A DNA stretch of 64,000 nt from Candidatus Woesebacteria bacterium (GTDB lineage: Bacteria; Patescibacteriota; Microgenomatia; UBA1400; UBA1396): positions 65,223-129,222 of the forward strand of contig CAVVNJ010000010.1 of the NCBI GenBank assembly GCA_963749595.1, given 5' to 3'. The position numbers and the translations under genes were made by a program. The notes beneath the pieces are model-generated. The model saw nothing but the letters and a program-made list of their open reading frames with translations, was not told the DNA's origin and ran no database searches. The first letter of the stretch is position 1. The number at the start of each line of letters is the position of its first letter. Shown here piece after piece: positions 3,813 through 61,291 of this stretch.

Positions 3813-3862
3813 TATACCGAGAGCTAATCGTTTGGGTCGCCTGATAGAACGTGAAGTCTCAC

Positions 3863-3918
3863 CTCTGGAAGGTCAGACCTTCCTGGCGTAGAAACGCCGA
3901 AGGTCTGACCTTCCAGAG
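3863..3918. repeat. REP-like palindromic element (double copy forming a long hairpin); likely terminator after rnhA
   Basis: ctctggaaggtcagaccttc at 3863-3882 is the exact reverse complement of 3899-3918. An inner ggcgt/acgcc hairpin is present. The core recurs at 17855, 24932, 49205, 56527 and 59813. Confidence 0.8.
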
Positions 3919-5555: not shown

Positions 5556-6256
5556 AATCATTGTTGCAGTCGGCTGATGAGGCTGAGCTACTGGTTTATC
5601 TGGATAATCAGCAAGCCAATGAGGCTTTGACCAACCTGGGTTGGGATGGCTCCCTGCGCACCCCAGATTGTCCCAATCCATTTCCGGCTCAGTCCTGTTT
5701 TGTGGACACCATCATGCAGGTTGAAGCCAATGTTGGTGTGAACAAAGCTAATCAATTTATTAAGCGTCAAATTAAACAGACGGCAACGTTAAGGGGACAG
5801 CAGGTGCTGCACGAACGAACCATCGTGTTGCAGAACACCGCTGACTCCAATGCTTGGCCTGAGGGCGCGTACAAAGACTATTTTCGGCTGTTTGTAACCC
5901 AGGGTTCGCAACTATCCGCTCTGACCATAAATTCGGCGCCAGTCGACTTACGCGGGGTCAAAGTGAGCGCTGAAAAAAACAAAACCGTTTTTGGATTTTT
6001 GGTTAACGTTCCCATTAAAAGCACCGCGACGATTCAGATTTCCTATAACACGCCGGTGCCCGACGCCTCACCCCTGGTTTACGCCTTGTTTGAGCAAAAG
6101 CAGGCTGGTGCCGGTTTTGACCCCATTGAAACCAAGATTGTGATTGAAGATCGAAAAGTTTTAACCGTGGCGCCGGAGCCGAAAATCGATGGCCGGACCC
6201 TGGAGTTTGACGGCGATCGGCGCACTCACCAATATTACGCCGTTGAAGTTCGTTAG
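5495..6256 (+). CDS. DUF4012-like protein, C-terminal part (continues 3981-5555 in the -1 frame)
   Basis: This frame is open from 5426 and reads ..FFPGSTQKRDFLSAVASALFEKLF across the T6C3 run. Confidence 0.7.
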   Translation: MASALFEKLFREDTNTLLVMKSLLQSADEAELLVYLDNQQANEALTNLGWDGSLRTPDCPNPFPAQSCFVDTIMQVEANVGVNKANQFIKRQIKQTATLRGQQVLHERTIVLQNTADSNAWPEGAYKDYFRLFVTQGSQLSALTINSAPVDLRGVKVSAEKNKTVFGFLVNVPIKSTATIQISYNTPVPDASPLVYALFEQKQAGAGFDPIETKIVIEDRKVLTVAPEPKIDGRTLEFDGDRRTHQYYAVEVR

Positions 6257-7920
6257 GAATTGGGCCAGGGTTCAGTAATTAACATCGACTTAGTGGGCTG
6301 AAGATTTTGCCAAACCGCCTCGGTAACAAACGGCATGAAGGGGTGGAGTAGCCGCAAACAGGTTAGGTAGACATTTTTTACCACGGCTAAATAGACTTCC
6401 CGATCGGTCCGATTCTTGTTTTCCTCAAGATAACGATTGGCAAATTCATTCCAAATAAAGTCGTATAGACCCAAGGCGGCGTCACTGAAATGATAGTGTT
6501 CCAGATGTTGAGTGGTTGTTTTTACTAGAGTCGATAACTGATTTAATATTTCTTGATCAACCAAGTTGGTGGAGGATGCATTCTCTGGAAAAGTTTCCCC
6601 CAATTCTTGCTCCTGAAGTTGAATAAACCGCCCAATATTCCAGATTTTGTTGCCAAAGTTACGGTAGCCCTTGACCTTGGGCTCACTCAAAGCGATGGGA
6701 TTTCCCGGTGCTGAGCCGGCAACTAGGGCGATTCGCAAAGCGTCGGCACCATACTTGGCGATAATTTCCAAGGGATTAACCACATTGCCTTTAGATTTGC
6801 TCATTTTGGCGCCCTTGGCGTCGGTGACCATGGAGTGGAGATAGACGGTTTTGAACGGCGCGACACCTTCAGGGTGGGCGCTGTCGTTAGTCAGATATTT
6901 CCCCAACATAATCATCCGGGCAATCCAGAAGAAAAGAATATCCCACATCGAGTCCAGAACAGCCGTGGGGTAGAAACGCTTGAAGTCTGGTCCGTCTGGA
7001 TAACCCAATACTGCTAGTGGCCATTGACCGGAACTAAACCAGGTGTCAAAAGTATCGGTGGATTGAACATATTCTTCACCCGGGGGGGTAATGGAAACCA
7101 CATAGTTGGCAGAAGAGGTGATTACGCTTTGCAACCCGGCGCGGATTTCATCAAGAGTAACTCCGGCGAGTAGTGCTTGGTCAATGCTCTCCGAGCGCCG
7201 CTCTCCCTCGTGGTTGATATAGGTGACCTGAATCGATCCCCCGGTTCCAGTTGAAGTGTTATACCAGACCGGCATCCGGATTCCCCAGACGATCTGACGG
7301 GAAATTGGCCAGTCGCGAATGTTGCTTAACCATTGTTCATATTGTTTGGTAAAGCGTTGGGGAATGACTTTTACTTCGCTGGTGCGCACTGCTTGCAGGC
7401 CCAACTCGGCCAATCCCTCCATCCGGACAAACCAGTTGGGGTAGGGCAAGGGCTCAATGGGGTGATTACCCTTATAGCAGACCGCAACTTGATTGGTGTA
7501 ATTTTGGTCAATTTTTTCGACCAAGTTTTCGGCTTGAAGTAGGCCGACAACCGCTTGACGCGCATTAGTGGTTCCTAATCCTTGGAATTGTTCGCGCAAC
7601 ATTTCAGCTCTGGTTTTGTCCGGCTCGTTGGGCGGTTGCAACCAGTCTAGGTCGATTTTGCCAAAAGTATTAATAGTCGAGTATATCGGCAAATTATGCT
7701 GTTTTCCGATTTTAAAATCATTAATATCATGTGCTGGGGTGACTTTAAGCAAGCCGGTGCCAAATTCCGGATCAACGTAGTCGTCGGCAATAATTGGGAT
7801 CGGTTGGCGGGTTAGCGGATTGAGGACGTAATCTCCCTGGAGCGAAGTTGTGCGTGGATCATTGGGGTTAATCGCCACCGCCACATCGGCAAAAATCGTT
7901 TCCGGCCGAACGGTAGCCAC
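6253..7920 (-). CDS. valS: Valyl-tRNA synthetase, C-terminal fragment (frame open up to about 8025)
   Basis: VATVRPETIFADVAVAINP, EFGTGLLKVTPAHD and KMSKSKGNVV. The upstream in-frame sequence HEERQSPLYYLRYHFADGE continues the N-terminal fragment. Confidence 0.9.
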   Translation of the reverse strand: MATVRPETIFADVAVAINPNDPRTTSLQGDYVLNPLTRQPIPIIADDYVDPEFGTGLLKVTPAHDINDFKIGKQHNLPIYSTINTFGKIDLDWLQPPNEPDKTRAEMLREQFQGLGTTNARQAVVGLLQAENLVEKIDQNYTNQVAVCYKGNHPIEPLPYPNWFVRMEGLAELGLQAVRTSEVKVIPQRFTKQYEQWLSNIRDWPISRQIVWGIRMPVWYNTSTGTGGSIQVTYINHEGERRSESIDQALLAGVTLDEIRAGLQSVITSSANYVVSITPPGEEYVQSTDTFDTWFSSGQWPLAVLGYPDGPDFKRFYPTAVLDSMWDILFFWIARMIMLGKYLTNDSAHPEGVAPFKTVYLHSMVTDAKGAKMSKSKGNVVNPLEIIAKYGADALRIALVAGSAPGNPIALSEPKVKGYRNFGNKIWNIGRFIQLQEQELGETFPENASSTNLVDQEILNQLSTLVKTTTQHLEHYHFSDAALGLYDFIWNEFANRYLEENKNRTDREVYLAVVKNVYLTCLRLLHPFMPFVTEAVWQNLQPTKSMLITEPWPNS

Positions 7921-8011
7921 GACCAGGTAGGGAACTTCTTGGCCGTTGATAATTCGCGGTTCGCCGTCGGCAAAGTGATAGCGGAGATAATAAAGCGGCG
8001 ACTGACGCTCC

Positions 8012-8590
8012 TCATGGAAGCACTTCTAGATCGGCAAAAGTGGTGCCACACTTAGGGCAGTAGTTAACGATGTAATTATCCCGATAAATCAAGCCATCTT
8101 TTTCTAGTTTCTGAAAGGTGTCAAAAACCAGGTGCAGCACTTTTTCGTCCAGGGTGAAGGTTCGGCGGTCCCAGTCGGCAGAAAAACCCAGGGCTTTCAT
8201 TTGGTCGACAATTAGGCCGGAATTTTGTTTGACGAAGGAAAAAATATCGCGATAGAGGGTTTCGCGATCAAATTGAAAGCGGGATTGACCCTTTTTCTTC
8301 AGCTCTTTTTCGTAAACAAATTGGGTTTCAAAACCGGCGTGATCGGTACCAGGAAACCAGACGGTGGGGTGACCCTGCATGCGTTTCCAGCGGATTAAGA
8401 TGTCTTGAATGACGTACATGGCATGGCCGGCGTGGAGTGAGGCGTTGGCGTTGGGTGGGGGCATGAGAATGGAGAAAGGCTCTAAATCAGATTCGTTAGG
8501 CTTAAAGGCGCCGGATTCTTCCCAGCGGCGATAAATCTGCGCCTCGTACTCCTGATGTTGGTAGGTGGTGGGAAAAACGGCCATGAGCAT
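8012..8590 (-). CDS. valS: Valyl-tRNA synthetase, N-terminal fragment
   Basis: PPPNANASLHAGHA (HIGH-type motif), WFPGTDHAGF and CPKCGTTFADLEV. It ends at a premature tga at 8012-8014. Confidence 0.9.
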   Translation of the reverse strand: MLMAVFPTTYQHQEYEAQIYRRWEESGAFKPNESDLEPFSILMPPPNANASLHAGHAMYVIQDILIRWKRMQGHPTVWFPGTDHAGFETQFVYEKELKKKGQSRFQFDRETLYRDIFSFVKQNSGLIVDQMKALGFSADWDRRTFTLDEKVLHLVFDTFQKLEKDGLIYRDNYIVNYCPKCGTTFADLEVLP

Positions 8591-12322: not shown

Positions 12323-12772
12323 ATGAGGAATGAAGCTATGACGCTTGCCCAGCAGAGCATTTTTTCGATTGCTCCGGCCAACCGGCTTGATCCGGAGGAG
12401 CAGGGTGAAATTGTCCAGTCGGTTCAGGATTGGTTGTTGGGTCTGGTCCTGCCGGATCGGGAGGTAGCGACTCACCTTGGCGACGATGGCGTTGCTCTGG
12501 GAAGCAAGTTGCAAAGGTTACAGCTGGACTCTACTTCGGAAGAGGAAAAAGAGTTGCTGCGGGACGATATTTTTTCCCGATTGAGTCGTGTGCCGAATAT
12601 TGAGGCGATTCTTCATCGTTATGCGGATGAGTTTAAAGTTGATTTCTTGGGCGAACGGATTTCATTGGAGCGGGAATTGGCTGGTTTCGATCTAGAACGC
12701 TTGGGGCAAATTGATCAGGCTTATGAGGCTTTTAACCATGGTGATTACGCGCTCGTTCTCGAGCTCCTTTGA
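12323..12772 (+). CDS. Hypothetical acidic protein
   Basis: 149-aa ORF followed by a long nested hairpin. Confidence 0.6.
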   Translation: MRNEAMTLAQQSIFSIAPANRLDPEEQGEIVQSVQDWLLGLVLPDREVATHLGDDGVALGSKLQRLQLDSTSEEEKELLRDDIFSRLSRVPNIEAILHRYADEFKVDFLGERISLERELAGFDLERLGQIDQAYEAFNHGDYALVLELL

Positions 12773-12783
12773 GACGTTGAGAT

Positions 12784-12871
12784 GAGGAATCATTCCTACC
12801 TCACCCTACGCCTGGAGGAATCAATCCAGATTGATTCCTCTAGAGGTGAGCCTCGGTAGGAATGATTCCTC
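12784..12871. repeat. Nested palindromic element / bidirectional terminator between convergent genes
   Basis: gaggaatcattcctacc at 12784-12800 is the reverse complement of 12855-12871. The inner stem pairs 12815-12825 with 12830-12840. The core aggaatcattcct also occurs at 8602-8614. Confidence 0.7.
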
Positions 12872-15864: not shown

Positions 15865-16521
15865 ATGGCATTTGGCAACATTACCGTTTCTGGTCTTCCA
15901 GGTTGTGGTTCAACTACCTTGTTGCGTGCCTTAAAAGAAGAGTTGAAGTTCGAGGGCTGGACGGGCTTTTCCGGCGGGGAATTCATGCGTGCCTACGCGG
16001 TTGAAAAGGGATTAATAAATCCCGCCGATGGTAAGTTGCACCACTCGGCTGCAGTTTACGGTGAAGATTTTGATCGCGAAGTTGATTTTGGTATGCGCCA
16101 CCGCCTGGAATCGGGCCAGGGCTGGATCTTGGAATCTTGGCTGTCGGGCTTCATGGCACAGCAAGTCCCGGGAGTTCTGAAAGTGCTTTTAGTTTGCTCT
16201 GATGACGCTGTCCGGATCGACCGGATTGTTAATCGCGACAACGTTTCGGTTAATGATGCCAAGCGACACATTCAAGACCGAACGGAGAAGAACGTTGCCA
16301 AATGGATTCGGATGTATGCCAAGGAATGGGAAGAATGGGTGGTGAAATCGGGAAAAGTCGCACCGAACGCAAGGATCGACTTTTGGCGACCCGAGTTATA
16401 CGATATAGTGATCGACACGTATTCCACCAATAAAGTCGATACCCTGAGTGCCGTTCTAAACCGCCTGTATGAGTCCCGCCAAAAACCAGCCAGCCAGCCA
16501 AAAGCTAACCGCCCTGCGTGA
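15865..16521 (+). CDS. Cytidylate kinase-like P-loop NTPase
   Basis: Walker A ITVSGLPGCGSTT, with ..VLLVCSDDAVRIDRIVNRD.. and YDIVIDT resembling the cytidylate-kinase-2 type family. Confidence 0.7.
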   Translation: MAFGNITVSGLPGCGSTTLLRALKEELKFEGWTGFSGGEFMRAYAVEKGLINPADGKLHHSAAVYGEDFDREVDFGMRHRLESGQGWILESWLSGFMAQQVPGVLKVLLVCSDDAVRIDRIVNRDNVSVNDAKRHIQDRTEKNVAKWIRMYAKEWEEWVVKSGKVAPNARIDFWRPELYDIVIDTYSTNKVDTLSAVLNRLYESRQKPASQPKANRPA

Positions 16522-16681
16522 TAAGCACGCGGATCATGTTTCGCAAAAATCGCGACGGCTAAATCACGTTCAGTCCCTGGGTGAGGGCGTGGGAAGAACT
16601 TTTCACACCACCCGCGATCATTTAACGCCATTTCGTTATCAAGAAGCGTTCCGCTCCTTGTACTCCTTTTTCTTTTTGGAG

Positions 16682-17296
16682 ATGAGCTTGTTGGTGATTT
16701 GGGTTGCCTACCGGGCTATGGTCGCCATGCCGGTTTGGTTTGACGAGGGCGTCGCTAAGGCACTAGTCTTTGGTTTGCCGGTCTTTTGGTTTGCGGCACG
16801 TTCTAAGTTTGTGGCCAATGAGTTGGGTTTGGATCCCCGGCGCATGCTGCCGGGGTTGTACCTTGGCTTGGCGGTTGGAGGTTTGTATGGCTTTATGGGG
16901 ATTTTGACCGAGGTGGTGGGTGGTCGGCAAGTGGTGGCCGGCAACCTTTTTGGAACCGATCAATTTTGGTGGCTGGCTTTCCTGGCCTTGCTAACCGCTT
17001 GGTGGGAGTCGTTATTCTTTTATGGCCTGCCGGTGCAATATATCCGCAGCGTTGCCCCCTGGTTTTCCGAGACTCTCACCGCGTCATTCACAGTTTGCTT
17101 GTTTTTGCTATTTCACGCTCCCCTGCGCTTGCTGGTGGCCGGTTACTCACCCTTTTTTCTAGTGCAAATGGGGGTGTTGCTGTTGTTCGCGATCGGGCAG
17201 TATATACTATACGTCCGGACGAAAAATATGTATGCCGTGGTTCTGTCCCATCTTTTATGGGGACTAGTGATCGAAATTTATTCGCGACCATTATGA
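16682..17296 (+). CDS. CPBP-family intramembrane protease-like protein (degenerate motif)
   Basis: Polytopic, with WWESLFFYGLP in place of EExxxR, plus FHAP and HLLWG. The start is uncertain because the ORF opens at 16469. Confidence 0.65.
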   Translation: MSLLVIWVAYRAMVAMPVWFDEGVAKALVFGLPVFWFAARSKFVANELGLDPRRMLPGLYLGLAVGGLYGFMGILTEVVGGRQVVAGNLFGTDQFWWLAFLALLTAWWESLFFYGLPVQYIRSVAPWFSETLTASFTVCLFLLFHAPLRLLVAGYSPFFLVQMGVLLLFAIGQYILYVRTKNMYAVVLSHLLWGLVIEIYSRPL

Positions 17297-17856
17297 AAAA
17301 ACAACAATGGCTGAGCAGCTCAGCGCTATTTATTTTTGGCCTGGTCATCATGATCGCTACCCTGCGGGTCTCGCACGTGCGGGCCAGCTATGCCTCCAAC
17401 GGATTGGTGCAACAGACGCAGGAAAGCGAAACCGATCTAATTTTGGCTCAACTCACTCAATCAAGTTTGCCGGGATCGGTTCCCTACCTTTGGCAGCGGG
17501 GCTGGGAGAGGGCCGAGTTGTTATGGTTGGCGGAAAATGAAAAACCTGAGATTTGGTTGGGACGCATTGCCGACCGGGTTGAATCGGCTGAGTTAGCGGA
17601 CTCACTGGGGCGGGAAGAGTTGGCCCTATCTACTTACCTAAAGGCTTTTGGTTACCTCCATCAGGGTGCTCACACCTGTTTTGCCGAGGGCGATACTCCA
17701 GAGTATTGTGAACGAGTAACCTTTACTGCCGCCACGGACGCCTTAGCGGATTCGGTGCAGAGATTTGCCCAGTCAACTACTTCCGACGCTCTTCGGGCCA
17801 GGGCAGACAGTCTGCGTTCCCAAATTCAAGCTCTCCGGCAGCAATTCCAGTTCTAA
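17293..17856 (+). CDS. Hypothetical membrane-anchored protein
   Basis: MKKQQWLSSSALFIFGLVIMIATL signal/anchor. There is an ATGA overlap with the upstream stop. Confidence 0.6.
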   Translation: MKKQQWLSSSALFIFGLVIMIATLRVSHVRASYASNGLVQQTQESETDLILAQLTQSSLPGSVPYLWQRGWERAELLWLAENEKPEIWLGRIADRVESAELADSLGREELALSTYLKAFGYLHQGAHTCFAEGDTPEYCERVTFTAATDALADSVQRFAQSTTSDALRARADSLRSQIQALRQQFQF

Positions 17857-17901
17857 GGTTTGACCTTCCAGGCGTGAGGGTGCTGTGGGGTCTTACCCTC
17901 A
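17855..17901. repeat. REP-like element copy
   Basis: aaggtttgaccttccaggcgtgagggt followed by the hairpin tgagggt...accctca. Confidence 0.7.
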
Positions 17902-17915
17902 TGTATACTGGCTTC

Positions 17916-24931: not shown

Positions 24932-24982
24932 CCCTGGAAGGTCAAACCTTCCAGGGGTAAGTTTGAACAAGGTCAGACCTTA
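24932..24982. repeat. REP-like element copies after gap (likely terminator)
   Basis: Perfect palindrome ccctggaaggtcaaaccttccaggg at 24932-24956, plus aaggtcagacctta at 24969-24982. Confidence 0.75.
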
Positions 24983-25009
24983 CTCTTGATTCCTGTATAC
25001 TGAAACTTA

Positions 25010-46701: not shown

Positions 46702-47610
46702 ATGGAAACCAAAACCACTTTTATTTGGGTAAAAAAACACGCGCTGACCATTTTCTTGTTGGCTGTGGTTGTTGTTCTGGTCTCCAACCGGGTGAATGTC
46801 CAGACCAGGCTACAGGACCTTGAAATGAGTTCCGGCGGAGTCGGGGTTGGTCTCCAAGGCGCGCCGGAGTTGGGGTTGGCCAAGGATATGGCGGTAACCT
46901 CTTCTTTCTTGCCGCCTGAACCGATTTCGGTGCCACCGTTTTCTCAGGCCGACCGTTTAGTGATCACTAATTCATCGCTTTCATTACTGGTGAAGGATGT
47001 AGCTCAGTCCATGGAACAGATACGTCAGGGGGCCGAAGGACTGGGTGGTTTTCTAGTCGATTCCAGTCTAAATGCCCCAGAGGGAACGGACACGGGCAGT
47101 ATCGCAGTACGTGTGCCGGTTGAGAAATTGAGCGAGGCTCTAGCTGCCTTCCGTGGATTGGCGGTGCGAGTCACCAGCGAGCAGGTGACCGGCCAAGACG
47201 TGACCGATCAATTCGTTGATTTAACGGCGCGATTGGCGGTATTGGAAAAAACGAAAGCGAAGTTTGAGTTGATTCTTGACGAGGCCCGGACCGTTCAGGA
47301 GTCGCTGGAAGTCCAACGCGAATTGGTTAATTTGCAGTATCAGATTGATGCGGTTAAAGGCCAGCAAAAATACCTTGATGAATCAGCCAAAACGGTACGA
47401 ATCACTGCCTTTTTGTCGACCGATGAGCTCGCTTTGCCTTTTGCGCCGGAGGATGCCTGGCGGCCGGAAGCAGTTTTCCGCCAAGCCGTTCGTTCGCTGG
47501 TTGGAATGCTGCGCGGATTCGGATCGGTAGCAATCTGGGCCGTAGTTTTTGTCCCGCTTTGGTTGCCGGCGATCATCATTTTGCGTTGGTTACGCCGACG
47601 ATTCGCTTAG
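46702..47610 (+). CDS. DUF4349-like membrane protein
   Basis: N-terminal TM segment, VRVPVEKLSEAL..., DVTDQFVDLTARLAVLEK coiled coil, and C-terminal TM helices. Confidence 0.7.
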   Translation: METKTTFIWVKKHALTIFLLAVVVVLVSNRVNVQTRLQDLEMSSGGVGVGLQGAPELGLAKDMAVTSSFLPPEPISVPPFSQADRLVITNSSLSLLVKDVAQSMEQIRQGAEGLGGFLVDSSLNAPEGTDTGSIAVRVPVEKLSEALAAFRGLAVRVTSEQVTGQDVTDQFVDLTARLAVLEKTKAKFELILDEARTVQESLEVQRELVNLQYQIDAVKGQQKYLDESAKTVRITAFLSTDELALPFAPEDAWRPEAVFRQAVRSLVGMLRGFGSVAIWAVVFVPLWLPAIIILRWLRRRFA

Positions 47611-49329
47611 TCGACGCTGTCTTCGACGCAAATAAATTAGGGTGACACCCAAGAGAGTGGCCGCGATGGCCAGCGAAAAAGGCCAGGCCGTTACGGTTTC
47701 CTCAACAATAACCGGGCCGGTTTGAGCATTGCGAATGGTCGCTCGGATTCGGTATGGTCCGAAAGCAAAGAGCGGGTCATAGGTAAAGGGAGTGGCCATG
47801 GCAGAGCGGGGGTCGTCCCGCCGTTGCCGGGCCGCAAAAATTTCTCGGCTGCTGTTGGCCAAAATCCGGTCCGGTAGACCTGGTTGCTCGTGGACGATGT
47901 GGTCGCGCCAATCAAGGACCACAATTGAAAGATCCGGAGCGGCGACGGTCTGGCTGGTGTTTTCTACTTGGGGACGAACAATTAAAGTTTGCAGCGAATC
48001 GATTAGTTTGGGCAAACGAAGAAAATTTATTTTCCAAGATAGGGGTTCAAGATTGTCGCTGGTGACGCGGACTAAAAGGTTGGCCGCGACGGCGCCGCGC
48101 GCCTGGGCGCCGGAATCGTTGAGAGGATCTTCCGCGGTTGGTTTTGAGGAGAGCAGAAGCATAAAGTACCAATCCCGGCGCGCGGCGTCACTGGGAATAT
48201 CCAATCCCAAGACCAGTTGTTGACTGGTATGACTGGGCAGGACGAAGGGTTGGTTGAGTTGGCGATCGGCATTTTGCATTTTGGCATAAGGAAAAGTATT
48301 GGTTTCCAACAACATTGGATAGCCGGTCTGGCCATCAGCGCCAAAATCCTGCAGCGTGGGGACAATCTCGACGCCGGTGGCGCCGCTGTTTTCCAAAAGA
48401 AAAGCCTGAGTGACTAGTTTCCCAGGTTGGACCGCAATTTCTACCACCGTTGGGCTGAGGGACAATTCCCAAGGTGCGGTTTGTTGGGCGCGCGCGGCGC
48501 GCGGTACGGCCAACAGGGAAATTCCCATGAGCGCGGTGATTAAGATTCCGGCTAAACTTCGCCGCGCCGCGCGCGCCAGCCAAATCCAACCTGCCACCAC
48601 CATGGCCAAGGAGGCCCATTGAGCGATGGTCAGACCCCAGGGTCCAGCGGCTGAATCAAGTCGTAGCAACTCGAGTGAGAAACGCACGGTGCCATATCCC
48701 ACCAGATACATTCCGGTATACAGTCCGCTACCCATTTGAAAAAAAGGAGCCTTGGTTTTTCTTTGATAACGCCATAATAAATACAGTCCCAAGCCGATTA
48801 ACAAGGTGGCAATCGACTCATAAAGAAACAAAGGGTGATAGCGTTCGACTGATGAATATTGTGGCAGCCGGTGCGCCGGGTCGATCTTGATTGCCCAGGG
48901 CAAGGAGGTGGGCCGACCATACAGTTCTTGATTAAAATAGTTGCCCCACCGACCGATAGCCTGGCCGAAAGGAACGGCGACAAAAATGGCATCCAGCAGT
49001 TCGGACCAGCGCCAGGGCATTCGGGTTAATCGTTTTCCCAACCAGAGTCCGATCAGACCGCCGATGATGGCGCCGTAAATTCCCAAACCCCCCTGCCAAA
49101 TATATAGCGCCTCAAGAGGGTGTGATTGATAGAGGTGCCAGTCGGTAAAAACGTGATAAATCCGGGCGCCAATTAGTCCACCGATAAAGATGTTCCACGC
49201 CAGGAGGGTCAGACCTTCAGAGGTTTTACCTCTGGAAGGTCTGACCTTCTCGGCCAAGATGTGTTCGGCTAGCGAAAAGGAGGCCAAAAAAGCTATCCCA
49301 ATAATTAATCCATAAGGCGAGAAATTCAT
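47590..49329 (-). CDS. lgt: Prolipoprotein diacylglyceryl transferase fused to a roughly 300-aa extracytoplasmic C-terminal extension
   Basis: LYIWQGGLGIYGAIIGG and FGQAIGRWGNYFNQELYGRPT. The extra domain ends in a TM segment plus RRRQRR. Confidence 0.85.
   Translation of the reverse strand: MNFSPYGLIIGIAFLASFSLAEHILAEKVRPSRGKTSEGLTLLAWNIFIGGLIGARIYHVFTDWHLYQSHPLEALYIWQGGLGIYGAIIGGLIGLWLGKRLTRMPWRWSELLDAIFVAVPFGQAIGRWGNYFNQELYGRPTSLPWAIKIDPAHRLPQYSSVERYHPLFLYESIATLLIGLGLYLLWRYQRKTKAPFFQMGSGLYTGMYLVGYGTVRFSLELLRLDSAAGPWGLTIAQWASLAMVVAGWIWLARAARRSLAGILITALMGISLLAVPRAARAQQTAPWELSLSPTVVEIAVQPGKLVTQAFLLENSGATGVEIVPTLQDFGADGQTGYPMLLETNTFPYAKMQNADRQLNQPFVLPSHTSQQLVLGLDIPSDAARRDWYFMLLLSSKPTAEDPLNDSGAQARGAVAANLLVRVTSDNLEPLSWKINFLRLPKLIDSLQTLIVRPQVENTSQTVAAPDLSIVVLDWRDHIVHEQPGLPDRILANSSREIFAARQRRDDPRSAMATPFTYDPLFAFGPYRIRATIRNAQTGPVIVEETVTAWPFSLAIAATLLGVTLIYLRRRQRRLSESSA
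49205..49250. repeat. REP-like palindrome embedded in frame in the lgt coding sequence
   Basis: agggtcagaccttcagaggt-ttt-acctctggaaggtctgaccttct. It encodes EKVRPSRGKTSEGLT in the loop after TM1. Confidence 0.7.
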
Positions 49330-49874
49330 GGCGTGCCCCGAACCACTAACAGTCCGGCGGTCAATAGCAGACCATAGAGCAGATAGGCTCCGACCAGAAA
49401 GTTAACGGTCGGAGATCCGGCCGGAAATTGGTGAAAATAGGTGGTCTGGATGCGGGCGGCCTGGCCCCGAAAATAATCCATCATTTCCCACCAGTAAACA
49501 CTGGAAAGCCCCCAGAAGAAGCCTAGCCCCAGGGCCGCCCGCGTCGACGAGATTAAAAACAGGGCCAACACCGGTAGGAGCAAGATGACTATGCCTTGCC
49601 GCAGAGGTGAGCTATCGACGATTGGTGCGGAGGAAGCTTCGCCTAAGGGTAAACGGTGGTGGGCAGCCTGCTTAAGTTGGCTGTCGATTAAAAAAATAAA
49701 GTGGGCGAGAAAAACACCGGCCACAAAAAGGGCGGCCGAGAGAGCTGATCTAATTGGCTCTTCAACGGAAAACGACCGAGCCTCGCCGACTAGTAAACCA
49801 GTTATTAGCGTGACTAACAGATGTTGGTGTTGGGATCGCACTCCCGCAAGTGCGTCATGGACGGTGGTTGGCAT
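49326..49874 (-). CDS. Hypothetical polytopic membrane protein
   Basis: 182-aa ORF with several hydrophobic helices. Confidence 0.55.
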   Translation of the reverse strand: MPTTVHDALAGVRSQHQHLLVTLITGLLVGEARSFSVEEPIRSALSAALFVAGVFLAHFIFLIDSQLKQAAHHRLPLGEASSAPIVDSSPLRQGIVILLLPVLALFLISSTRAALGLGFFWGLSSVYWWEMMDYFRGQAARIQTTYFHQFPAGSPTVNFLVGAYLLYGLLLTAGLLVVRGTP

Positions 49875-56171: not shown

Positions 56172-56589
56172 ATGGACGATCTTTACCGGGACCACATTCT
56201 AGATCATGCCGAAAATCCCGCCGCGAGGGTAAGTTTGCCCCATCCCACCCACACCGGCAGTTATGGCAATCGCTCCTGCGGCGACGAGATCGACCATTGA
56301 TCTAGAGATTATTGACGGCCGAATCATCGCGGTTCGTTGGCGCGGCGAGGGTTGCGTGATTAGTCAAGCGGCGGCCAGTTTGCTAGCCGAGGAAATCGAA
56401 AATCTGCCGATTGAAGAAGTATTATCCTGGGAAGATGACGCGGTGCTGGACGAGCTCGGTTTGCCGGAGGTTTCTTACGCCCGCCGGCCTTGCGCTCTGA
56501 CGTTTATCAATACCCTCCGCCACATCCTGAGGGTCAGACCCTCCAGGCGTGAGGGTACCCCAGGGTCAGACCCTCAGGAGGAAGGGTGA
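56172..56589 (+). CDS. sufU: SufU/IscU-type Fe-S scaffold, one frame break at about 56292 and a repeat-encoded C-terminal tail
   Basis: MDDLYRDHILDHAENP...GNRSCGDEI, then (+1) TIDLEIIDGRIIAVRWRGEGCVISQAAAS. Confidence 0.7.
56527..56578. repeat. REP-like element (variant core GGGTCAGACCC, two copies) forming the 3' end of the sufU ORF
   Basis: ctgagggtcagaccctccaggcgtgagggtaccccagggtcagaccctcagg. Confidence 0.65.
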
Positions 56590-57203: not shown

Positions 57204-58937
57204 ATGGCCATGGCCCGTCGAACAAGAAACTTTCTCCTGATCGGAGTTGTCCTTGCCTTGATTATTGCCGGTGCCGCGACCTTTTTTGTTCTGAATCGCT
57301 ATTTCCTGACCGGTCAGACTACCGAGCTGCGGGGCAGGGCCAGCATTGGCGCCATCGGTACCGCAACCATGACCCTGGATACCAAATCAAATACTCGCTA
57401 CGTCAACGATGAGTTTCCGGTCGATATTACTCTTGATACTGGTAACGGCGCTGTTTCGGCGGTCGCGGTTGGGTTGAACTATACCTCCAGTGGCACTGAT
57501 CCAGAACTGCAAATAGTCGATGCCGATCCAACCCGAGACGGGATCCAAATTATTTCTCACGTTGCAACGAATATGCCTGGTTGTTCCGATCAGATTAACC
57601 AAGTGAACCGGGAAACTGCTGACCCGCGCCACATCTTCATTGATTTCGGCGCCACTTGCGGCAGCGCTACCGGTTACAACAGTGGGGGTAAAAAAATCAT
57701 TGCCACCATTGTTTTTCGGGCCAATCGCGCGATCTCAAAGACAATTGAACACGATCCAACCAAGGCGATCGTAACATTGAAGGAGACCGGGGATGATACC
57801 CTCAACTCCGTGCCGGCCCTTACCATTAACGTGCTGGCCGATACTCAGGCACCGGTGGTCTCTTTTACTCCCGATTCATTGGTTGCGCGTACGGACGGAA
57901 AGCTAGCCACTAGTAGCGCCATGGTCCGTTTCGCCTGGAACGGCACTGAGCAACCAGCTCGTGCCGACGACACGGTTTTGCTTGATCAATACGTGGAATA
58001 TCAGTATCGCTTCAATGAGGCGGCCTGGCCGACTACCTGGGTTAGGGAAAAGACCGTTACCCGCAGCTTTGCCCATAATGTCACGACCGGCCACACCATT
58101 CAGGTTCGCGGACGCGACAAAAATGGCAATATCAGTGCGCCGATTTCAAAAAATTTCCTAGTGGACCTGTCGCCCAGTGTTAGTAGCATTGCTCCAACTC
58201 ATGGGGCCGCCGGTGCCCAGATTACCATAGCCGGATTCAACTTTGGCACAGTCAAAGGTTCGGTGTTTTTCGGCACGGCTGAAGTAACGGGAACTAATAT
58301 CATTAGTTGGACGAATGAGCGGATAGTTGTTAGGATTCCCGCCACTGCGGGATCGACAGTGAGCGTTAAACCCCCGGCGCCCCAGCCGGTTTCCAACACG
58401 GTGCCTTTCACGTTGGATACCAACCTGCGCTTAGTAATGAACTTGCAGGGCTTGGGTCAAGATCGAGGTCCAAAACAGGTGAGCGTAGTGGTTTCCCGCG
58501 GCACCTATGAGGCACGCTTCAACAACCTGGATGCGATCTGGGACGCGGCCGAAAACGCCTATGTGGTGGTGACACCGCCGCTGGCCGATACTGGTCTTGC
58601 TACCGCTGCCAACTTCGTAGTGTCGGTTAAAGAAATGTCGCGCCTACGCAAGAAGTTTACCGCCGTTTCGTTAACGCGCGGCTCACAAACCTCGGTGGTA
58701 AAGAAAGCTGCGGCTGATTTACAAAAGGTAGGTGACGTCAACAACGACAACAAGATCAGCGTGCTGGATTTCAGCGACATGGTGCGCCCTGGTAACTTTA
58801 CCGGCCTCGCGACGGCGGTAACCGCGGCTAACGCCAAGTATGATCTTAATGGCGATGGGTCATTGACTGCCGCCGACATCGCTCTGTTGTTGGCCAATTA
58901 CACGCAACTGGAAACCCCAGGCGATGCCGAGAAATAA
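57204..58937 (+). CDS. Membrane-anchored surface protein: cohesin-like domain + IPT/TIG domain + C-terminal dockerin
   Basis: A ggaagg RBS is present. The IPT/TIG segment is IAPTHGAAGAQITIAGFNFG. The dockerin repeats are GDVNNDNKISVLDFSDMV and YDLNGDGSLTAADIALLLANY (58731-58901). Confidence 0.75.
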   Translation: MAMARRTRNFLLIGVVLALIIAGAATFFVLNRYFLTGQTTELRGRASIGAIGTATMTLDTKSNTRYVNDEFPVDITLDTGNGAVSAVAVGLNYTSSGTDPELQIVDADPTRDGIQIISHVATNMPGCSDQINQVNRETADPRHIFIDFGATCGSATGYNSGGKKIIATIVFRANRAISKTIEHDPTKAIVTLKETGDDTLNSVPALTINVLADTQAPVVSFTPDSLVARTDGKLATSSAMVRFAWNGTEQPARADDTVLLDQYVEYQYRFNEAAWPTTWVREKTVTRSFAHNVTTGHTIQVRGRDKNGNISAPISKNFLVDLSPSVSSIAPTHGAAGAQITIAGFNFGTVKGSVFFGTAEVTGTNIISWTNERIVVRIPATAGSTVSVKPPAPQPVSNTVPFTLDTNLRLVMNLQGLGQDRGPKQVSVVVSRGTYEARFNNLDAIWDAAENAYVVVTPPLADTGLATAANFVVSVKEMSRLRKKFTAVSLTRGSQTSVVKKAAADLQKVGDVNNDNKISVLDFSDMVRPGNFTGLATAVTAANAKYDLNGDGSLTAADIALLLANYTQLETPGDAEK

Positions 58938-58947
58938 AGAAGGAGTT

Positions 58948-59814
58948 ATGTTGCTGCCCGTTTTAACCCTCCGCTCGGTTGTTGTTAGACTGATTAAACT
59001 GGGGGTTCTGGCTGGCCTGGTTCTGATACTGATTGGCAATTTGGTTCCTCAACCGCAGGCTTATGTCCAAGGCGGAGTCGGCAAAATATTGCTCCAACCG
59101 GCGACTGGAACCATGACCACCGGAACGGATTTTGCGGTTGATGTCATGATTAATACCGGCGGTCGGGCAATTTCAGCCCTGGCTTTTCGCCTACCGGTGA
59201 ATGCCGCTGACTTGCAGGCCACATCAGTTACCGGCAATGAGGCTATCGGAGGAGGTTGGTCTTACCCTTATAGTGCGACCACCGTTAATGGACAGAACAT
59301 TGTCGAGTTGATGGCGGTTAACAGTTCGACGACCGGCTATACTTCCGGTACCAACGTCAAAATTGCCACGATTGTTTTTCGGGCGACCTCAGCTTTTACC
59401 AATAAAGCTTTGACCTTTGATTTGACGCAAACGCAAATGTTGACTAAAGAAGCCACGCCGGTTGATATTTTGGGAACGGCGACTGGCGGAACCTATAGTG
59501 CCTCCGGAACGGCGGTTGCGCCCACCCCGACACCAACGCCAACCCCCACACCGACACCTGATCCGGATGCTACTCCCACCCCGACGCCGCTACCGACTCC
59601 CACTCCTGATACTACCGCTACGCCCACTCCAACACCGGACATTGGTATTGGTGGTGGCGATGACACTATTGGTGGTTCAACAGACACCACTGGTCAGCCA
59701 GCAATCACTCAACCGGTTCCGGAAACGGCCAGTCCAGGTGCGATGTTTGCCTTGGGCCTCGGCGGTTTTGGCTTGCTGGTCTTGGGAGGCTTTGCCTTCC
59801 GGCGCCGCAGCTAA
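58948..59814 (+). CDS. Cohesin-domain protein with a PT-rich stalk and a C-terminal sorting-signal-like anchor
   Basis: An aaggag RBS is present. The cohesin-like segment is TDFAVDVMINTGGRAISALAFRL...KIATIVFRA. The TPTPTP linker is followed by VPETASPGAMFALGLGGFGLLVLGGFAFRRRS. Confidence 0.75.
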   Translation: MLLPVLTLRSVVVRLIKLGVLAGLVLILIGNLVPQPQAYVQGGVGKILLQPATGTMTTGTDFAVDVMINTGGRAISALAFRLPVNAADLQATSVTGNEAIGGGWSYPYSATTVNGQNIVELMAVNSSTTGYTSGTNVKIATIVFRATSAFTNKALTFDLTQTQMLTKEATPVDILGTATGGTYSASGTAVAPTPTPTPTPTPTPDPDATPTPTPLPTPTPDTTATPTPTPDIGIGGGDDTIGGSTDTTGQPAITQPVPETASPGAMFALGLGGFGLLVLGGFAFRRRS

Positions 59815-59856
59815 GGTTAAACCTTCCAGGCGTGAGAATGGGCAAGATCTGATCTT
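59813..59856. repeat. REP-like element copy plus a small palindrome between convergent genes
   Basis: aaggttaaaccttccaggcgtgaga, then aagatc-t-gatctt. Confidence 0.6.
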
Positions 59857-61291
59857 AAGCGGAAAGCGGTTTCATCGTTGGAAACAGAATAACGTCGCGA
59901 ATTTTGGTTTGATTGGTCAGCAGCATTACCAAGCGATCAATTCCCAATCCCAAGCCACCGGTTGGCGGCATACCATACTCCAGCGCTTCAATAAAATCTT
60001 CGTCCAACGGATGTTTTTCCTCATCTTCGGTGCGTTCTTCCGCCCAGTACTGCCGCTGCAGGACCGGATCGTTGAGCTCGGTGTAAGCATTGCCCACCTC
60101 CCAGCCAAAAATGTAGGGTTCAAAGCGTTCGATTAAGCTCGGATCTTTCCGATGCGGCTTGCAGAGGGAAGTCGTTTCGCGGGGCATATCGGTCACAAAA
60201 GTCGGTTGAATCAATTTTGGCTCAACGGCCTCAAAAAGGGCAGCAATGCCCAGACCGCGTTTCCATTCCCCTGCGTACTCCAAGCCCTGTTTTTTGATCT
60301 CTTCGCGCAGCTGATCATCGCTTAATTGATCGACGTCAATATTGAGGTATTCCTTGATTCCGTCTTTCATTGGCAGCCGACGCCAGGCACCAGCCAACTC
60401 AATCGTCGTGCCTTGATACTCGAACCGCGTAGTGCCATGCACTGCCAGTGCCGCATTCTGGTAAATTTTTTCGGTCAGGGTCATCATGTCGGTGTAGTCA
60501 GCGTAAGCGGCGTAACATTCCATCATCGAAAACTCCGGGTTATGAGTCCGGTCAACGCCCTCGTTGCGGAAGTTGTGGTCAATCTCGTAAACCTTATCGA
60601 ATCCACCGACAATCAGGCGCTTAAGGTAGAGTTCATCGGAAATTTTCAGATATTGGGGAATGTCCCAGGCGTTAATGTGGGTCACGAATGGCCGGGCGTT
60701 GGCACCACCATACAAAGGTTGCAGGGTCGGAGTTTCCACCTCCAGAAAACCCGCTTCGTCCAAAGTTTTTCGCACCGACTGCATAATCGCGGTGCGCGCT
60801 CGGATGACATTTTTTACCGCCTCATTCAGATTTAAGTCCACATAGCGACGCCGGTACCGTTCTTCCTCGTCAGAAAGTCCGTACCAAGTATCGGGCAGGG
60901 GGCGAATGGCTTTAGCCAATAGTTCGATCCGACGCGCCAAAACACTGGGCTCGTTGGCTTGGGTCAAGAAGCGTTCGCCGGAAACGCGGAGAAAGTCGCT
61001 GGTTTGGAGCGACTCGACCTCGGCAAAATTATCGGTAGCGTCGGCCTTGCAGACAACCTGAATTTTTCCTGATTCGTCAATTAAATCGATAAAGCGAATT
61101 TTGCCGTGACCGCGTAGGGCTCGGATGCGGCCGGCAATCTGGACCGATCGGCCGTCGAGTTCTTCTAAAGCCTGAGTGTTGGTGTGAGTTTTGTGGGCTT
61201 CCTGGGGATAGGGATTGGTGCCGCGTTCGATTAATTCCTGGCGAACGTGGAGGCGGGATTGGCGGATGTCGTCGAGACGGGAAGAGGCCAT
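59855..61291 (-). CDS. lysS: Lysyl-tRNA synthetase (class II)
   Basis: Class II motifs FRNEG..., ...GGLGLGIDRLVMLL and an OB-fold N-terminus. Probable start MASSRLDDIRQ at 61291. Confidence 0.9.
   Translation of the reverse strand: MASSRLDDIRQSRLHVRQELIERGTNPYPQEAHKTHTNTQALEELDGRSVQIAGRIRALRGHGKIRFIDLIDESGKIQVVCKADATDNFAEVESLQTSDFLRVSGERFLTQANEPSVLARRIELLAKAIRPLPDTWYGLSDEEERYRRRYVDLNLNEAVKNVIRARTAIMQSVRKTLDEAGFLEVETPTLQPLYGGANARPFVTHINAWDIPQYLKISDELYLKRLIVGGFDKVYEIDHNFRNEGVDRTHNPEFSMMECYAAYADYTDMMTLTEKIYQNAALAVHGTTRFEYQGTTIELAGAWRRLPMKDGIKEYLNIDVDQLSDDQLREEIKKQGLEYAGEWKRGLGIAALFEAVEPKLIQPTFVTDMPRETTSLCKPHRKDPSLIERFEPYIFGWEVGNAYTELNDPVLQRQYWAEERTEDEEKHPLDEDFIEALEYGMPPTGGLGLGIDRLVMLLTNQTKIRDVILFPTMKPLSA

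Follow-up and report, generated by a model that had tools for sequence, protein, structure and literature searches.

The lgt locus and its hairpin

The window analysed here, a 64-kb stretch of DNA from an uncultivated member of the Patescibacteria, contains an lgt gene on the minus strand with a palindromic element in its coding sequence (Table 1). The Pfam LGT domain (PF01790, E = 1.2e-56) covers residues 5-251, which places the element inside the domain; C-terminal to it lies a lineage-specific domain of ~310 aa without a Pfam match. Over 21 Lgt sequences 30 columns are invariant, the GRWGNYFNQE signature stretch included, and the enzyme looks otherwise intact, its loop being merely repeat-encoded. 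An identical Lgt protein recurs in independent assemblies, which makes an assembly artefact unlikely. The gene had been called essential in the initial annotation. Most Gram-negatives do not survive deletion of lgt (PMC4728403), but viable deletion strains are reported for pneumococcus (PMC6549034), and essentiality is not established for the present organism.

The palindrome described in that annotation is present and slightly bigger than stated: beyond the core hairpin at 49205-49250 there is an outer stem, and on the lgt-sense (minus) strand positions 49199-49254 form a strong hairpin of 56 bases (minus-strand letters, GCCGAGAAGGTCAGACCTTCCAGAGGTAAAACCTCTGAAGGTCTGACCCTCCTGGC). The element was recovered as inverted repeat I5 in the inverted-repeat search. 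As RNA, the minus strand of 49195-49260 folds to -39.6 kcal/mol, compared with an average of -18.5 for shuffles (z = -7.7), and none of 200 shuffles folds as stably. The doublet occupies approximately nt 76-131 of the coding sequence, corresponding to residues A25-A43 (AEKVRPSRGKTSEGLTLLA), and its in-frame translation within Lgt is EKVRPSRGKTSEGLT, as had been correctly read from the unbroken ORF (47590-49329, minus strand). The core-to-core distance of 31 nt shifts the frame by one, so that the second core escapes the GTC-TGA stop. The intrinsic terminator scan did not report the hairpin, and no T-run lies 3' of it. When the whole window was searched against Rfam, only two tRNAs exceeded the gathering thresholds and the lgt hairpin had no match; the permissive matches at the hairpin are chance miRNA models. 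A frameshifting signal was considered and rejected, since reading the sequence upstream of the hairpin revealed no slippery heptamer.

Table 1. Coordinates of lgt, its palindromic element and the other repeat copies in the window.
Feature	Coordinates	Strand	Basis
lgt coding sequence, 579 aa, uninterrupted	47590..49329	-	ORF, Pfam, alignments
Intragenic REP doublet (REPIN-like hairpin) of lgt with outer stem	49199..49254	-	inverted repeat, RNA fold, profile match
First palindromic core, AAGGTCAGACCTT (sense strand), encodes K-V-R-P	49236..49248	-	
Spacer with inner stem-loop (CCAGAGGT AAA ACCTCTG), encodes S-R-G-K-T-S	49218..49235	-	fold
Second palindromic core, AAGGTCTGACCCT (sense strand), encodes E-G-L-T	49205..49217	-	codons read directly
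Copy A, intergenic between RNase H-like gene and DUF4012 gene, perfect 20-bp arms	3862..3917	+	fold, profile
Copy B, begins at stop codon of ORF 16966-17856, upstream of VIT1 gene	17852..17904	+	profile
Copy C, directly 3' of GAPDH gene	24932..24985	+	alignment, profile
Copy E, in frame at 3' end of NifU-like ORF 56263-56589	56523..56579	+	profile, orthologue comparison
Copy F, between convergent genes, overlaps stop codon of ORF 58924-59814	59810..59860	+	alignment, profile

Alignment to E. coli Lgt (5AZB) places the repeat peptide between TM1 and TM2, and in the published topology this loop is cytoplasmic (PMC4728403), so the location first proposed holds. Counted from TM1's conserved E to TM2's GAR motif, the interval spans 31 aa here. 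The other orthologue with the repeat has 33 aa, and 14 repeat-less orthologues have 26-30 aa; in E. coli the loop is longer by one residue. Since loops with and without the repeat are similarly long, the repeat fills the native loop's place with no net gain in length. A repeat-encoded peptide in the cytoplasmic loop, as originally suggested, is therefore retained, whereas its description as an insertion of ~15 residues is not. The suggested comparison with orthologues gave a mixed outcome: without the repeat the loop is alike in length but differs in sequence. For the residues 'RP' and 'LAW' of the repeat-bearing loop, the alignments show counterparts in orthologues and in E. coli RPGSG.

A repeat family in the window and in related genomes

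The label 'REP-like' given to the element is justified by its relatives in the window. Specifically, the doublet GGTCWGACC-N(15-30)-GGTCWGACC is found 3 times where 0 are expected, and the core, allowing up to 2 mismatches, 13 times where 1.1 are expected. Six full-length copies are found in the 64 kb, all alignable in one orientation. A leave-one-out profile made from the five other window copies finds the lgt copy with E = 1.9e-9 (33.5 bits) at 49250-49202 on the minus strand, model positions 7-55 of 57, and prefers the sense strand there (33.5 vs 13.7 bits). This E-value makes a chance resemblance, which would have undone the original proposal, very unlikely. Additionally, the lgt copy shares an exact 16-nt stretch (GAAGGTCAGACCTTCC) with copy A, which itself folds to -47.7 kcal/mol, and has the unit spacing and architecture of the other window copies. 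In alignment by eye, a GTAG tag is seen in copy A only (GGCGTAGAA), the others having GTGAG, GTAAG or GTAAA there, and a CGTC tag is absent from all six window copies.

The lgt copy and copy E are intragenic, and the four others are intergenic and 3' of genes. All five window copies with informative orientation are co-oriented with transcription, a bias that is not significant (two-sided p = 0.06). The cores occur almost exclusively in doublets, rarely singly, at a density of ~1 per 10 kb; their reading as DNA-uptake sequences was set aside on account of this pairing and low density. Copy E answers the earlier question about in-frame copies elsewhere: it is read in frame as the C-terminal tail of the NifU-like protein (RVRPSRREGTPGSDPQ), followed by EEG and the stop, and directly precedes the Shine-Dalgarno sequence and start of an NTPase gene. 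It is a true net insertion of about 12-15 codons relative to orthologues and is missing in the related loci L002 and L003. The window and one close relative, L001, have the lgt copy, which L002 and L003 lack. The site of copy C is empty in three relatives (L237, L238 and L239), L237 being a GAPDH contig from the same sample as L001. Judged by these comparisons, copies of the family are gained and lost at orthologous sites, which points to mobility.

RAYTs, the Y1/HUH REP-associated tyrosine transposases, are thought to mobilise short palindromes as single-stranded hairpins. L003 encodes two PF01797/NF047646 proteins, one of which is flanked by GGGTCAGACC repeats; this repeat-flanked gene (16330-16809) matches PF01797, and NF047646 with E = 1.9e-10, below the curated cut-off. 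RAYT homologues are present in ~14 of 113 8-kb loci retrieved solely by the doublet pattern, often adjoining a doublet, and tblastn found no RAYT gene within the 64-kb window. Y1 (RAYT-like) transposase genes with the GGTCWGACC core on their flanks are present in related genomes.

Among 99 doublets sampled in Patescibacteria genomes, 40 lie in frame within long open frames, and all ten in-frame doublets checked are in housekeeping genes (LeuRS, ArgRS, GatB, DnaE, UvrD and others); TopA, RecJ and SMC are further host genes. The same core was seen in many Patescibacteria lineages among the matches listed. In-frame doublets of this kind are common in housekeeping genes of these bacteria. The class I tRNA synthetase encoded in the window is ValRS-like by its motifs and is without the LeuRS anchor motif. 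The GatB genes of two genomes carry differing perfect palindromes at the same site (L138 vs L168, perfect 28-bp stem), and one GatB element lengthens its protein by 11 aa compared with an orthologue.

Origin and upkeep of the lgt copy

The sole close Lgt orthologue (L001, 72% identity) carries a hairpin at the same site. The two hairpins are identical at 38 of 57 nt (67%) and differ at the other 19. Four base pairs are changed on both sides, the core being GGTCAGACC in the window and GGCTAAGCC in L001 on both arms, and the L001 core stays a perfect palindrome despite four changes per arm. At the L001 site the fold reaches -39.8 kcal/mol (z = -7.4); the corresponding stretches of L002 and L003 are unstructured. 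When the window hairpin was subjected to random 30% substitution in 5000 trials, -39 kcal/mol was reached in 0.06% of them. Comparison of these two sequences suggests that the hairpin structure has been maintained, by some process, between the window and L001 lineages; it is missing from 14 other orthologues of the same gene architecture. A metagenome scan for the AGGCTWAGCCT...AGGCTWAGCCT doublet gave no further contig of the L001 sample among the matches listed. These L001-type matches are heterogeneous, and some are tandem repeats encoding K-A-K-P.

The lgt element is probably an intragenic member, old and fixed, of a REP-doublet (REPIN-like) family of the kind that RAYTs would mobilise. 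The ancestor shared by the window and L001 lineages would have acquired a copy in the segment that codes for the loop. Its survival would have depended on an Lgt loop tolerant of sequence change, on a frame, K-V-R-P-S-R-G-K, that is stop-free and basic, as befits a cytoplasmic loop, and on the 31-nt spacing, which puts the second core in the G-L-T frame and not in that of the GTC-TGA stop. The encoded peptide would be a passenger rather than a new function. The hairpin may be kept up by a DNA-level process acting on the family, with template switching between the arms, gene conversion by other family copies or RAYT action as candidates, or else selection may act on the mRNA structure. Two points speak against this account. 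After ~30% nucleotide divergence a decaying selfish relic should have lost its hairpin, and the lgt copy did not. As there is no net insertion in lgt, simple insertion of a copy would also need the loss of ~13-16 native codons, or else a replacement mechanism, and we know of no such mechanism for REPs.

A broader reading, which we put forward tentatively, is that the paired perfect palindromes of Patescibacteria form a superfamily (cores AAGGTCWGACCTT, AAGGCTWAGCCTT and AAGTCWGACTT). Its members would persist at their sites in housekeeping genes over deep divergence, with cores that covary, and be actively renewed or functional. Covarying cores at one site are seen in two cases, lgt (window vs L001) and gatB (L138 vs L168). 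If this reading is true, the elements are not passive relics, and either the repeat/transposase system renews them in place, the current family variant overwriting an old copy, or they function in coding DNA or mRNA; such behaviour is not known to have been described for REPs or RPEs (Rickettsia palindromic elements).

The initial annotation had also offered a regulatory RNA. The hairpin could be an exapted cis-regulatory mRNA structure that holds up ribosomes or changes the stability of the mRNA, for instance to time the membrane insertion of TM1, and four double compensatory changes at 67% identity, the improbability of hairpin retention under unconstrained drift and the co-orientation of all five informative copies are consistent with this, as is the argument that many REPs act as RNA elements (PMC3733652). 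We nevertheless consider it unlikely: 14 orthologues of the same architecture do without the hairpin, the same element recurs at unrelated places inside and between genes, the co-orientation falls short of significance, and neither an Rfam match, a terminator-like T-run nor an upstream slippery site was seen. Moreover, the internal palindrome of each core is also kept although the pairing of the arms requires none, which argues against a plain RNA hairpin. A regulatory role of the lgt hairpin is possible but unsupported. Those internal palindromes, still perfect in L001 after four changes per arm, would be expected of a DNA-level site, in which paired 13-nt palindromes are bound by a dimeric protein (putatively a RAYT, a nucleoid protein, or a restriction-modification or uptake factor) and kept genome-wide, with coding regions accommodating them. 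The core common to many lineages among the matches listed and the different perfect palindromes at one GatB site fit such a site as well, but cores that are nearly always doublets instead of scattered singles, their low density, and copies that come and go at orthologous sites make it distinctly improbable.

The two remaining explanations concern how the repeat came to lie in the loop. A plain tolerated insertion of ~15 residues, after the simple Rickettsia RPE model, has precedents in the same genome (the NifU tail, 12-15 aa) and in the phylum (GatB, 11 aa), yet it is very hard to reconcile with a loop of 31 aa against 26-30 aa without the repeat and with the still longer loop of E. coli. Origin in place from the native loop, for example by a template switch, with a family resemblance due to chance, would account for the unchanged net length and for the aligned 'RP' and 'LAW'; we give it almost no credence in view of the full-length profile match, the exact 16-nt stretch also found in copy A, and a spacing and architecture the same as in other copies.

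Comparison with known repeats

Palindromic repeats that are translated count as a rare and disputed origin of new protein segments; most known cases come from Rickettsia, and Patescibacteria can now be added. In the very small genomes of Patescibacteria ~40% of the sampled doublets are in frame, all those checked lying in core genes, and at lgt and gatB hairpins are held at one site while both arms change sequence. This offers a concrete system for studying how REP/RAYT elements are maintained. A repeat origin also helps account for unexplained short 'insertions' in Patescibacteria proteins, and cautions those who annotate or model these proteins that such segments derive from repeats. For lgt itself the practical import is small.

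A REPIN consists of two inverted REP units as a hairpin doublet and is present tens to hundreds of times per genome; a RAYT is a single-copy Y1 transposase gene flanked by REPIN-type repeats. Classical REPINs are nearly all extragenic and ~100 nt long. REPINs and RAYTs were reportedly described in Pseudomonas and E. coli by Bertels and Rainey in 2011 and by Nunvar and colleagues in 2010. Unlike in the classical REPINs, each unit here is a perfect palindrome and copies lie inside genes; neither the lgt copy nor copy E has the extragenic location of REPs and REPINs.

In-frame MITE fusions (Coxiella QMITE, intragenic ERIC, Anabaena MITEs; PMC5896051, PMC10969869) are another case in which small non-autonomous repeats can be translated and modify proteins, and in this the present elements resemble them. 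MITEs have terminal inverted repeats, target-site duplications and an origin from DDE insertion sequences (PMC5896051, PMC10969869), none of which was seen here. Our literature search found no paper linking RAYTs or REPINs with Patescibacteria or mentioning the motif, which is not proof of absence.

Rickettsia palindromic elements (RPE; Ogata et al. 2000) are summarised in two papers (PMC10969869, PMC3733652). According to these, RPEs, like the present elements, are palindromes lying in frame in unrelated housekeeping genes and are translated, their peptides being extra segments thought to occupy permissive surface regions; neither paper is known to mention a transposase partner for RPE-1. RPE-1 is given there as ~100-150 bp, whereas the element here measures 46-57 nt. 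RPEs are described as net insertions confined to Rickettsia, and the lgt copy is neither; relative to repeat-less orthologues, a net insertion is found in the NifU copy and not in the lgt copy.

Intragenic REPs of the GTAG/CGTC-tagged superfamilies were described by Di Nocera, De Gregorio & Rocco 2013 (PMC3733652). Like these, the present elements are short palindromes lying mostly downstream of genes, often as inverted dimers that form larger hairpins, and, judging by relatives, are linked to RAYT genes (PMC3733652). A minority of the REPs in that study are intragenic, the dimers there encoding ~20-30 aa, and many of their host genes serve replication or repair, as do UvrD, DnaE, TopA, RecJ and SMC in Patescibacteria (PMC3733652). 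In contrast to the tagged REPs, the core here is AAGGTCWGACCTT and shows neither GTAG nor CGTC clearly, the phylum is another one, and the intragenic share is apparently much higher (40/99 doublets; compare PMC3733652). Also unlike intragenic REPs, the lgt copy takes the place of a loop that it does not lengthen, and its structure is conserved from one species to another. Together, intragenic REPs and Rickettsia RPEs have already been described, and the lgt case is the same kind of event in Patescibacteria.

A repeat-family hairpin inside lgt

The initial annotation described a REP-like palindrome in frame within the essential lgt gene, and both the palindrome and its translation are borne out. 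The sense strand at 49199-49254(-) reads GCCGAG-AAGGTCAGACCTT-CCAGAGGTAAAACCTCTG-AAGGTCTGACCCT-CCTGGC, in which two mutually complementary 13-nt cores, each a nearly perfect palindrome alone, stand 31 nt apart; an inverted-repeat search finds a short inner stem-loop between the cores, and the whole is enclosed by a short outer stem. RNA folding of the 66-nt segment 49195-49260(-) gives -39.6 kcal/mol, as against a mean of -18.5 +/- 2.7 for dinucleotide shuffles (z = -7.7; 0 of 200 as stable). The lgt ORF is uninterrupted across the hairpin, which is translated as EKVRPSRGKTSEGLT, and residues 5-251 of the product match Pfam LGT (PF01790, E = 1.2e-56). Two or more assemblies hold an identical protein, which makes an assembly artefact unlikely. 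Calling this gene essential extrapolates from Gram-negative bacteria.

The doublet GGTCWGACC-N(15-30)-GGTCWGACC occurs 3 times in the window and 0 times in shuffles, while the core with at most two mismatches occurs 13 times versus 1.1 expected and is nearly always paired. Six elements, all in one orientation, can be aligned end to end (copies A-F in the table), and a profile search of the window found no further copies. A leave-one-out profile built from copies A, B, C, E, and F only matches the lgt copy with E = 1.9e-9 (33.5 bits, model positions 7-55 of 57), and it prefers the lgt sense strand to the opposite strand (13.7 bits). The ORFs beside the copies are real genes, namely RNase H-like, DUF4012, VIT1, GAPDH, NTPase_I-T, and class II aminoacyl-tRNA synthetase. 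All five copies that could be judged are co-oriented with transcription, which is suggestive only (two-sided p = 0.06).

Coordinates of the repeat copies and other features in the window
Feature	Position	Strand	Context
Copy A	3862-3917	+	intergenic
Copy B	17852-17904	+	begins at stop codon
Copy C	24932-24985	+	3' of GAPDH
Copy D	49202-49250	-	inside lgt
Copy E	56523-56579	+	3' end of NifU-like ORF
Copy F	59810-59860	+	between convergent genes
lgt ORF	47590-49329	-	579 aa
C-terminal domain of Lgt	47590-48520	-	~310 aa
Lgt start	49300-49329	-	ahead of TM1
Membrane ORF	49326-49874		182 aa, overlaps lgt start by ATGA
Inverted repeat	48472-48592		within lgt
Second long palindrome	12784-12871		between ORF 12323-12772 and PBP1-type gene
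NifU-like gene	56172-56589		seems frameshifted
Class I aminoacyl-tRNA synthetase gene	6253-8590	-	two ORFs, 8012-8590 and 6253-7920

Copies C and E, which lie outside lgt, behave like mobile DNA. Specifically, the site of copy C is empty in L237 (a locus from the same sample as the related contig L001; 82.8% identical) and in two more relatives. At the 3' end of the NifU-like ORF (Pfam NifU_N), copy E is read in frame and gives the tail RVRPSRREGTPGSDPQEEG in the V-R-P-S-R frame, the same as in the lgt copy; the orthologues of two related loci, L002 and L003, are shorter by 12-15 residues at this end, and the element is absent from their DNA. The search for other in-frame copies, as the initial annotation had proposed, thus brings the translated ones to two of the six in the window.

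The NifU-like gene seems frameshifted, with an N-terminal piece (MDDLYRDHILDHAENP...) from 56172 reaching a stop near 56297 and the rest forming ORF 56263-56589 in another frame, either by a sequencing indel or by a real disruption. The class I synthetase gene, which we take to be ValRS-like from motifs read by eye, has a frameshift near 7920-8010, and the two cases together suggest assembly indel errors. The second long palindrome is unrelated to the family; its 43-nt arms are 79% complementary with GAGGAATCATTCC-type cores, and it may be another REP family; GAGATCSAATCTC palindromes flank one RAYT-like (REP-associated tyrosine transposase) gene of L003. The GC-rich inverted repeat within lgt (30-nt arms, 80% complementary, 61 nt apart) flanks the segment coding the additional membrane helix that separates the Lgt domain from the C-terminal one.

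Loop length and reading frame of the Lgt protein

An Lgt domain followed by a ~310-aa C-terminal domain is found in 16 proteins. With the conserved E in TM1 and the GAR motif in TM2 as its ends, the loop interval is 31 aa in the window Lgt and 33 aa in P0002 (72% identity to it), which both contain the repeat, versus 26 aa in P0003 and 29 aa in P0004 (57% identity each), where the repeat is absent; at the protein level, P0005-P0016 (40-48% identity) show 28-30 aa. The alignment with E. coli Lgt (PDB 5AZB) pairs ANRPGSGWTKNEVENLL with KVRPSRGKTSEGLTLL, the E. coli loop being longer by one residue only. An insertion of about 15 residues, one of two readings initially offered, is therefore wrong: the loop lengths are similar across orthologues, so the repeat sits in the place of the native loop. 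In E. coli Lgt, the N-terminal strand belongs to the periplasmic head and positive charge lies on the cytoplasmic face (PMC4728403), which together with the alignment places the TM1-TM2 loop in the cytoplasm. Reading the element as a peptide that a repeat encodes, within a cytoplasmic loop, is right.

The repeat may have been inserted in the loop with subsequent loss of the displaced codons; another possibility is that recombination would have replaced the native segment. The ancestral CTGGC(G/C)TGG (L-A-W) is in common with the post-core motif CC(A/T)GGCGTG of the repeat. The frame in which the element is read makes sense. Core 1 reads GTC-AGA-CCT (V-R-P), yielding a basic peptide, and core 2 reads GGT-CTG-ACC (G-L-T) owing to the 31-nt spacing (1 modulo 3); in the unshifted frame core 2 would read GTC-TGA, a stop.

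The C-terminal domain, without Pfam match, is preceded by one extra membrane segment and has a second at its end; it is also found alone in P0017-P0019 (~318 aa). The start of the window Lgt is only five residues ahead of the invariant Tyr of TM1, so neither the N-terminal beta1 strand nor arm-1 is present in it; E. coli Lgt loses its activity when its first nine residues are removed (PMC4728403). The membrane ORF overlapping the lgt start is conserved and has no assigned function.

Retention of the hairpin in a related genome

L001, the contig encoding P0002, is 70.7% identical to the window across 2.2 kb and reads CTGAAGGCTAAGCCTTCCAGAGTAAACTCTGGTCAAGGCTTAGCCTTCCTGGCGTGG at the same lgt site. 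The two elements share 38 of 57 nt, which is not above the gene average, and the L001 element folds at -39.8 kcal/mol (z = -7.4); at the equivalent place, L002 and L003 show no structure (z = +2.0 and +0.9). The core changes from GGTC(A/T)GACC to GGCT(A/T)AGCC in both arms, the long stem has four compensatory pair changes, each altered on both sides, with no pair broken, and the internal palindrome of each core is retained. When 30% random substitution with transition bias was applied to the window hairpin in 5000 trials, the mean was -17.6 kcal/mol and -39 was reached in 0.06% of them. This rarity indicates that the hairpin structure is maintained by something.

Selection could act on the mRNA or on the DNA site; arm-to-arm template switching and conversion by other family members are further candidates. 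Families with the AGGCTWAGCCT core and adjoining RAYT-like genes occur in nature. For the regulatory RNA that the initial annotation gave as its other reading, no T-run lies 3' of the hairpin, the terminator scan makes no call there, and an Rfam search gives no match at the site; this role is unproven.

Intragenic doublets, transposase genes, and known systems

Intragenic copies are a general phenomenon in Patescibacteria. When a position was scored as intragenic if an open frame ran 60 codons or more in each direction, 40 doublets qualified out of 99 that could be assessed in the genome loci retrieved, versus 61% of random 40-nt windows there, so doublets show only a mild depletion from genes. 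The ten host ORFs checked are all housekeeping genes: LeuRS, ArgRS, UvrD, DnaE, GatB (two genomes), SMC, topoisomerase I, RecJ, and MurB. Pfam domains flank the element on both sides, except in ArgRS, where it lies within the DALR domain match. A-type cores are seen in the G-Q-T and V-R-P frames (the third would give R-S-D-L) and T-type cores in G-L-T and R-S-D-L; since only open frames were selected, GTC-TGA could not have turned up. The AGGCTWAGCCT variant is also in frame in ORFs whose motifs, by eye, resemble ATP synthase alpha, P-type ATPase, and UvrD.

The gatB genes of two Patescibacteria loci, L138 (4131-5684) and L168 (3760-5319), are 55% identical, and one L138 element adds a net 11 residues compared with L168. 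Elsewhere, after ANIS-x-RP, both genes carry a hairpin of equal length with different cores: AAGGTCWGACCTT in L168 (-40.5 kcal/mol), and AAGTCWGACTT within a perfect 28-bp stem in L138 (-48.1 kcal/mol; two tandem 31-nt palindromes). The lgt hairpins follow the same pattern, a hairpin in one place whose cores differ. Two orthologous genes, in L164 and L233 (open frames with IWEDLKR), also carry a AAGGTCWGACCTT doublet at roughly matching positions; its frames differ (RSDL...RSDL versus GQTL...GLTF), which points to independent insertions or flanking indels.

No RAYT-like gene was found in the window by tblastn. L003 (GCA_964511175.1), which carries a 57%-identical Lgt, encodes two PF01797 proteins whose sole NCBIfam match is 'REP-associated tyrosine transposase', at E = 1e-10 to 1e-12 and below the curated cut-off. 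One gene (16330-16809) has clusters of GGGTCAGACC units on either side. The GGTCWGACC doublet occurs in more than 113 places in the public genome collection, versus a rough chance estimate of ~5, mostly in Patescibacteria MAGs. Among the 113 8-kb doublet loci retrieved, ~14 contain homologues of the L003 proteins, in several cases only a few hundred bases away from the doublet, and likewise ~6 loci with the AGGCTWAGCCT core. Those GAPDH homologues that carry source names belong to Woesebacteria and 'Patescibacteria group', which puts the window in that phylum.

At 16757-16809 of L003, a REP doublet encodes the last ~17 residues and the stop codon of the RAYT-like gene, and the other such gene has a different palindrome at its flanks. 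Unlike the 31-nt doublets of the window, GGTCAGACC units at 3745-3838 of L172 form tandem arrays of 17-nt period followed by inverted units.

Among the papers searched, none links RAYT or REPIN with Patescibacteria or mentions the motif. Two features raise the interest of these findings: the hairpin's structure is conserved where its position inside a gene is fixed, and the repeat superfamily has a higher intragenic share across Patescibacteria than expected. REPs lie mostly 3' of genes, often as inverted dimers, and some have been equated with the Rickettsia palindromic elements (RPEs) RPE-4 and RPE-6 (Di Nocera et al. 2013, PMC3733652); in-frame RPEs are summarised in a 2024 review (PMC10969869). 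Two caveats apply to a comparison with REP/REPIN systems: a cognate RAYT of the lgt-element family is seen in relatives only, and the GTAG or CGTC tag of REP superfamilies is not evident in the window family. By size, host, and the lack of a net insertion, the lgt element is no RPE family member. It works like intragenic REPs and RPEs, and belongs to the REP/REPIN kind.
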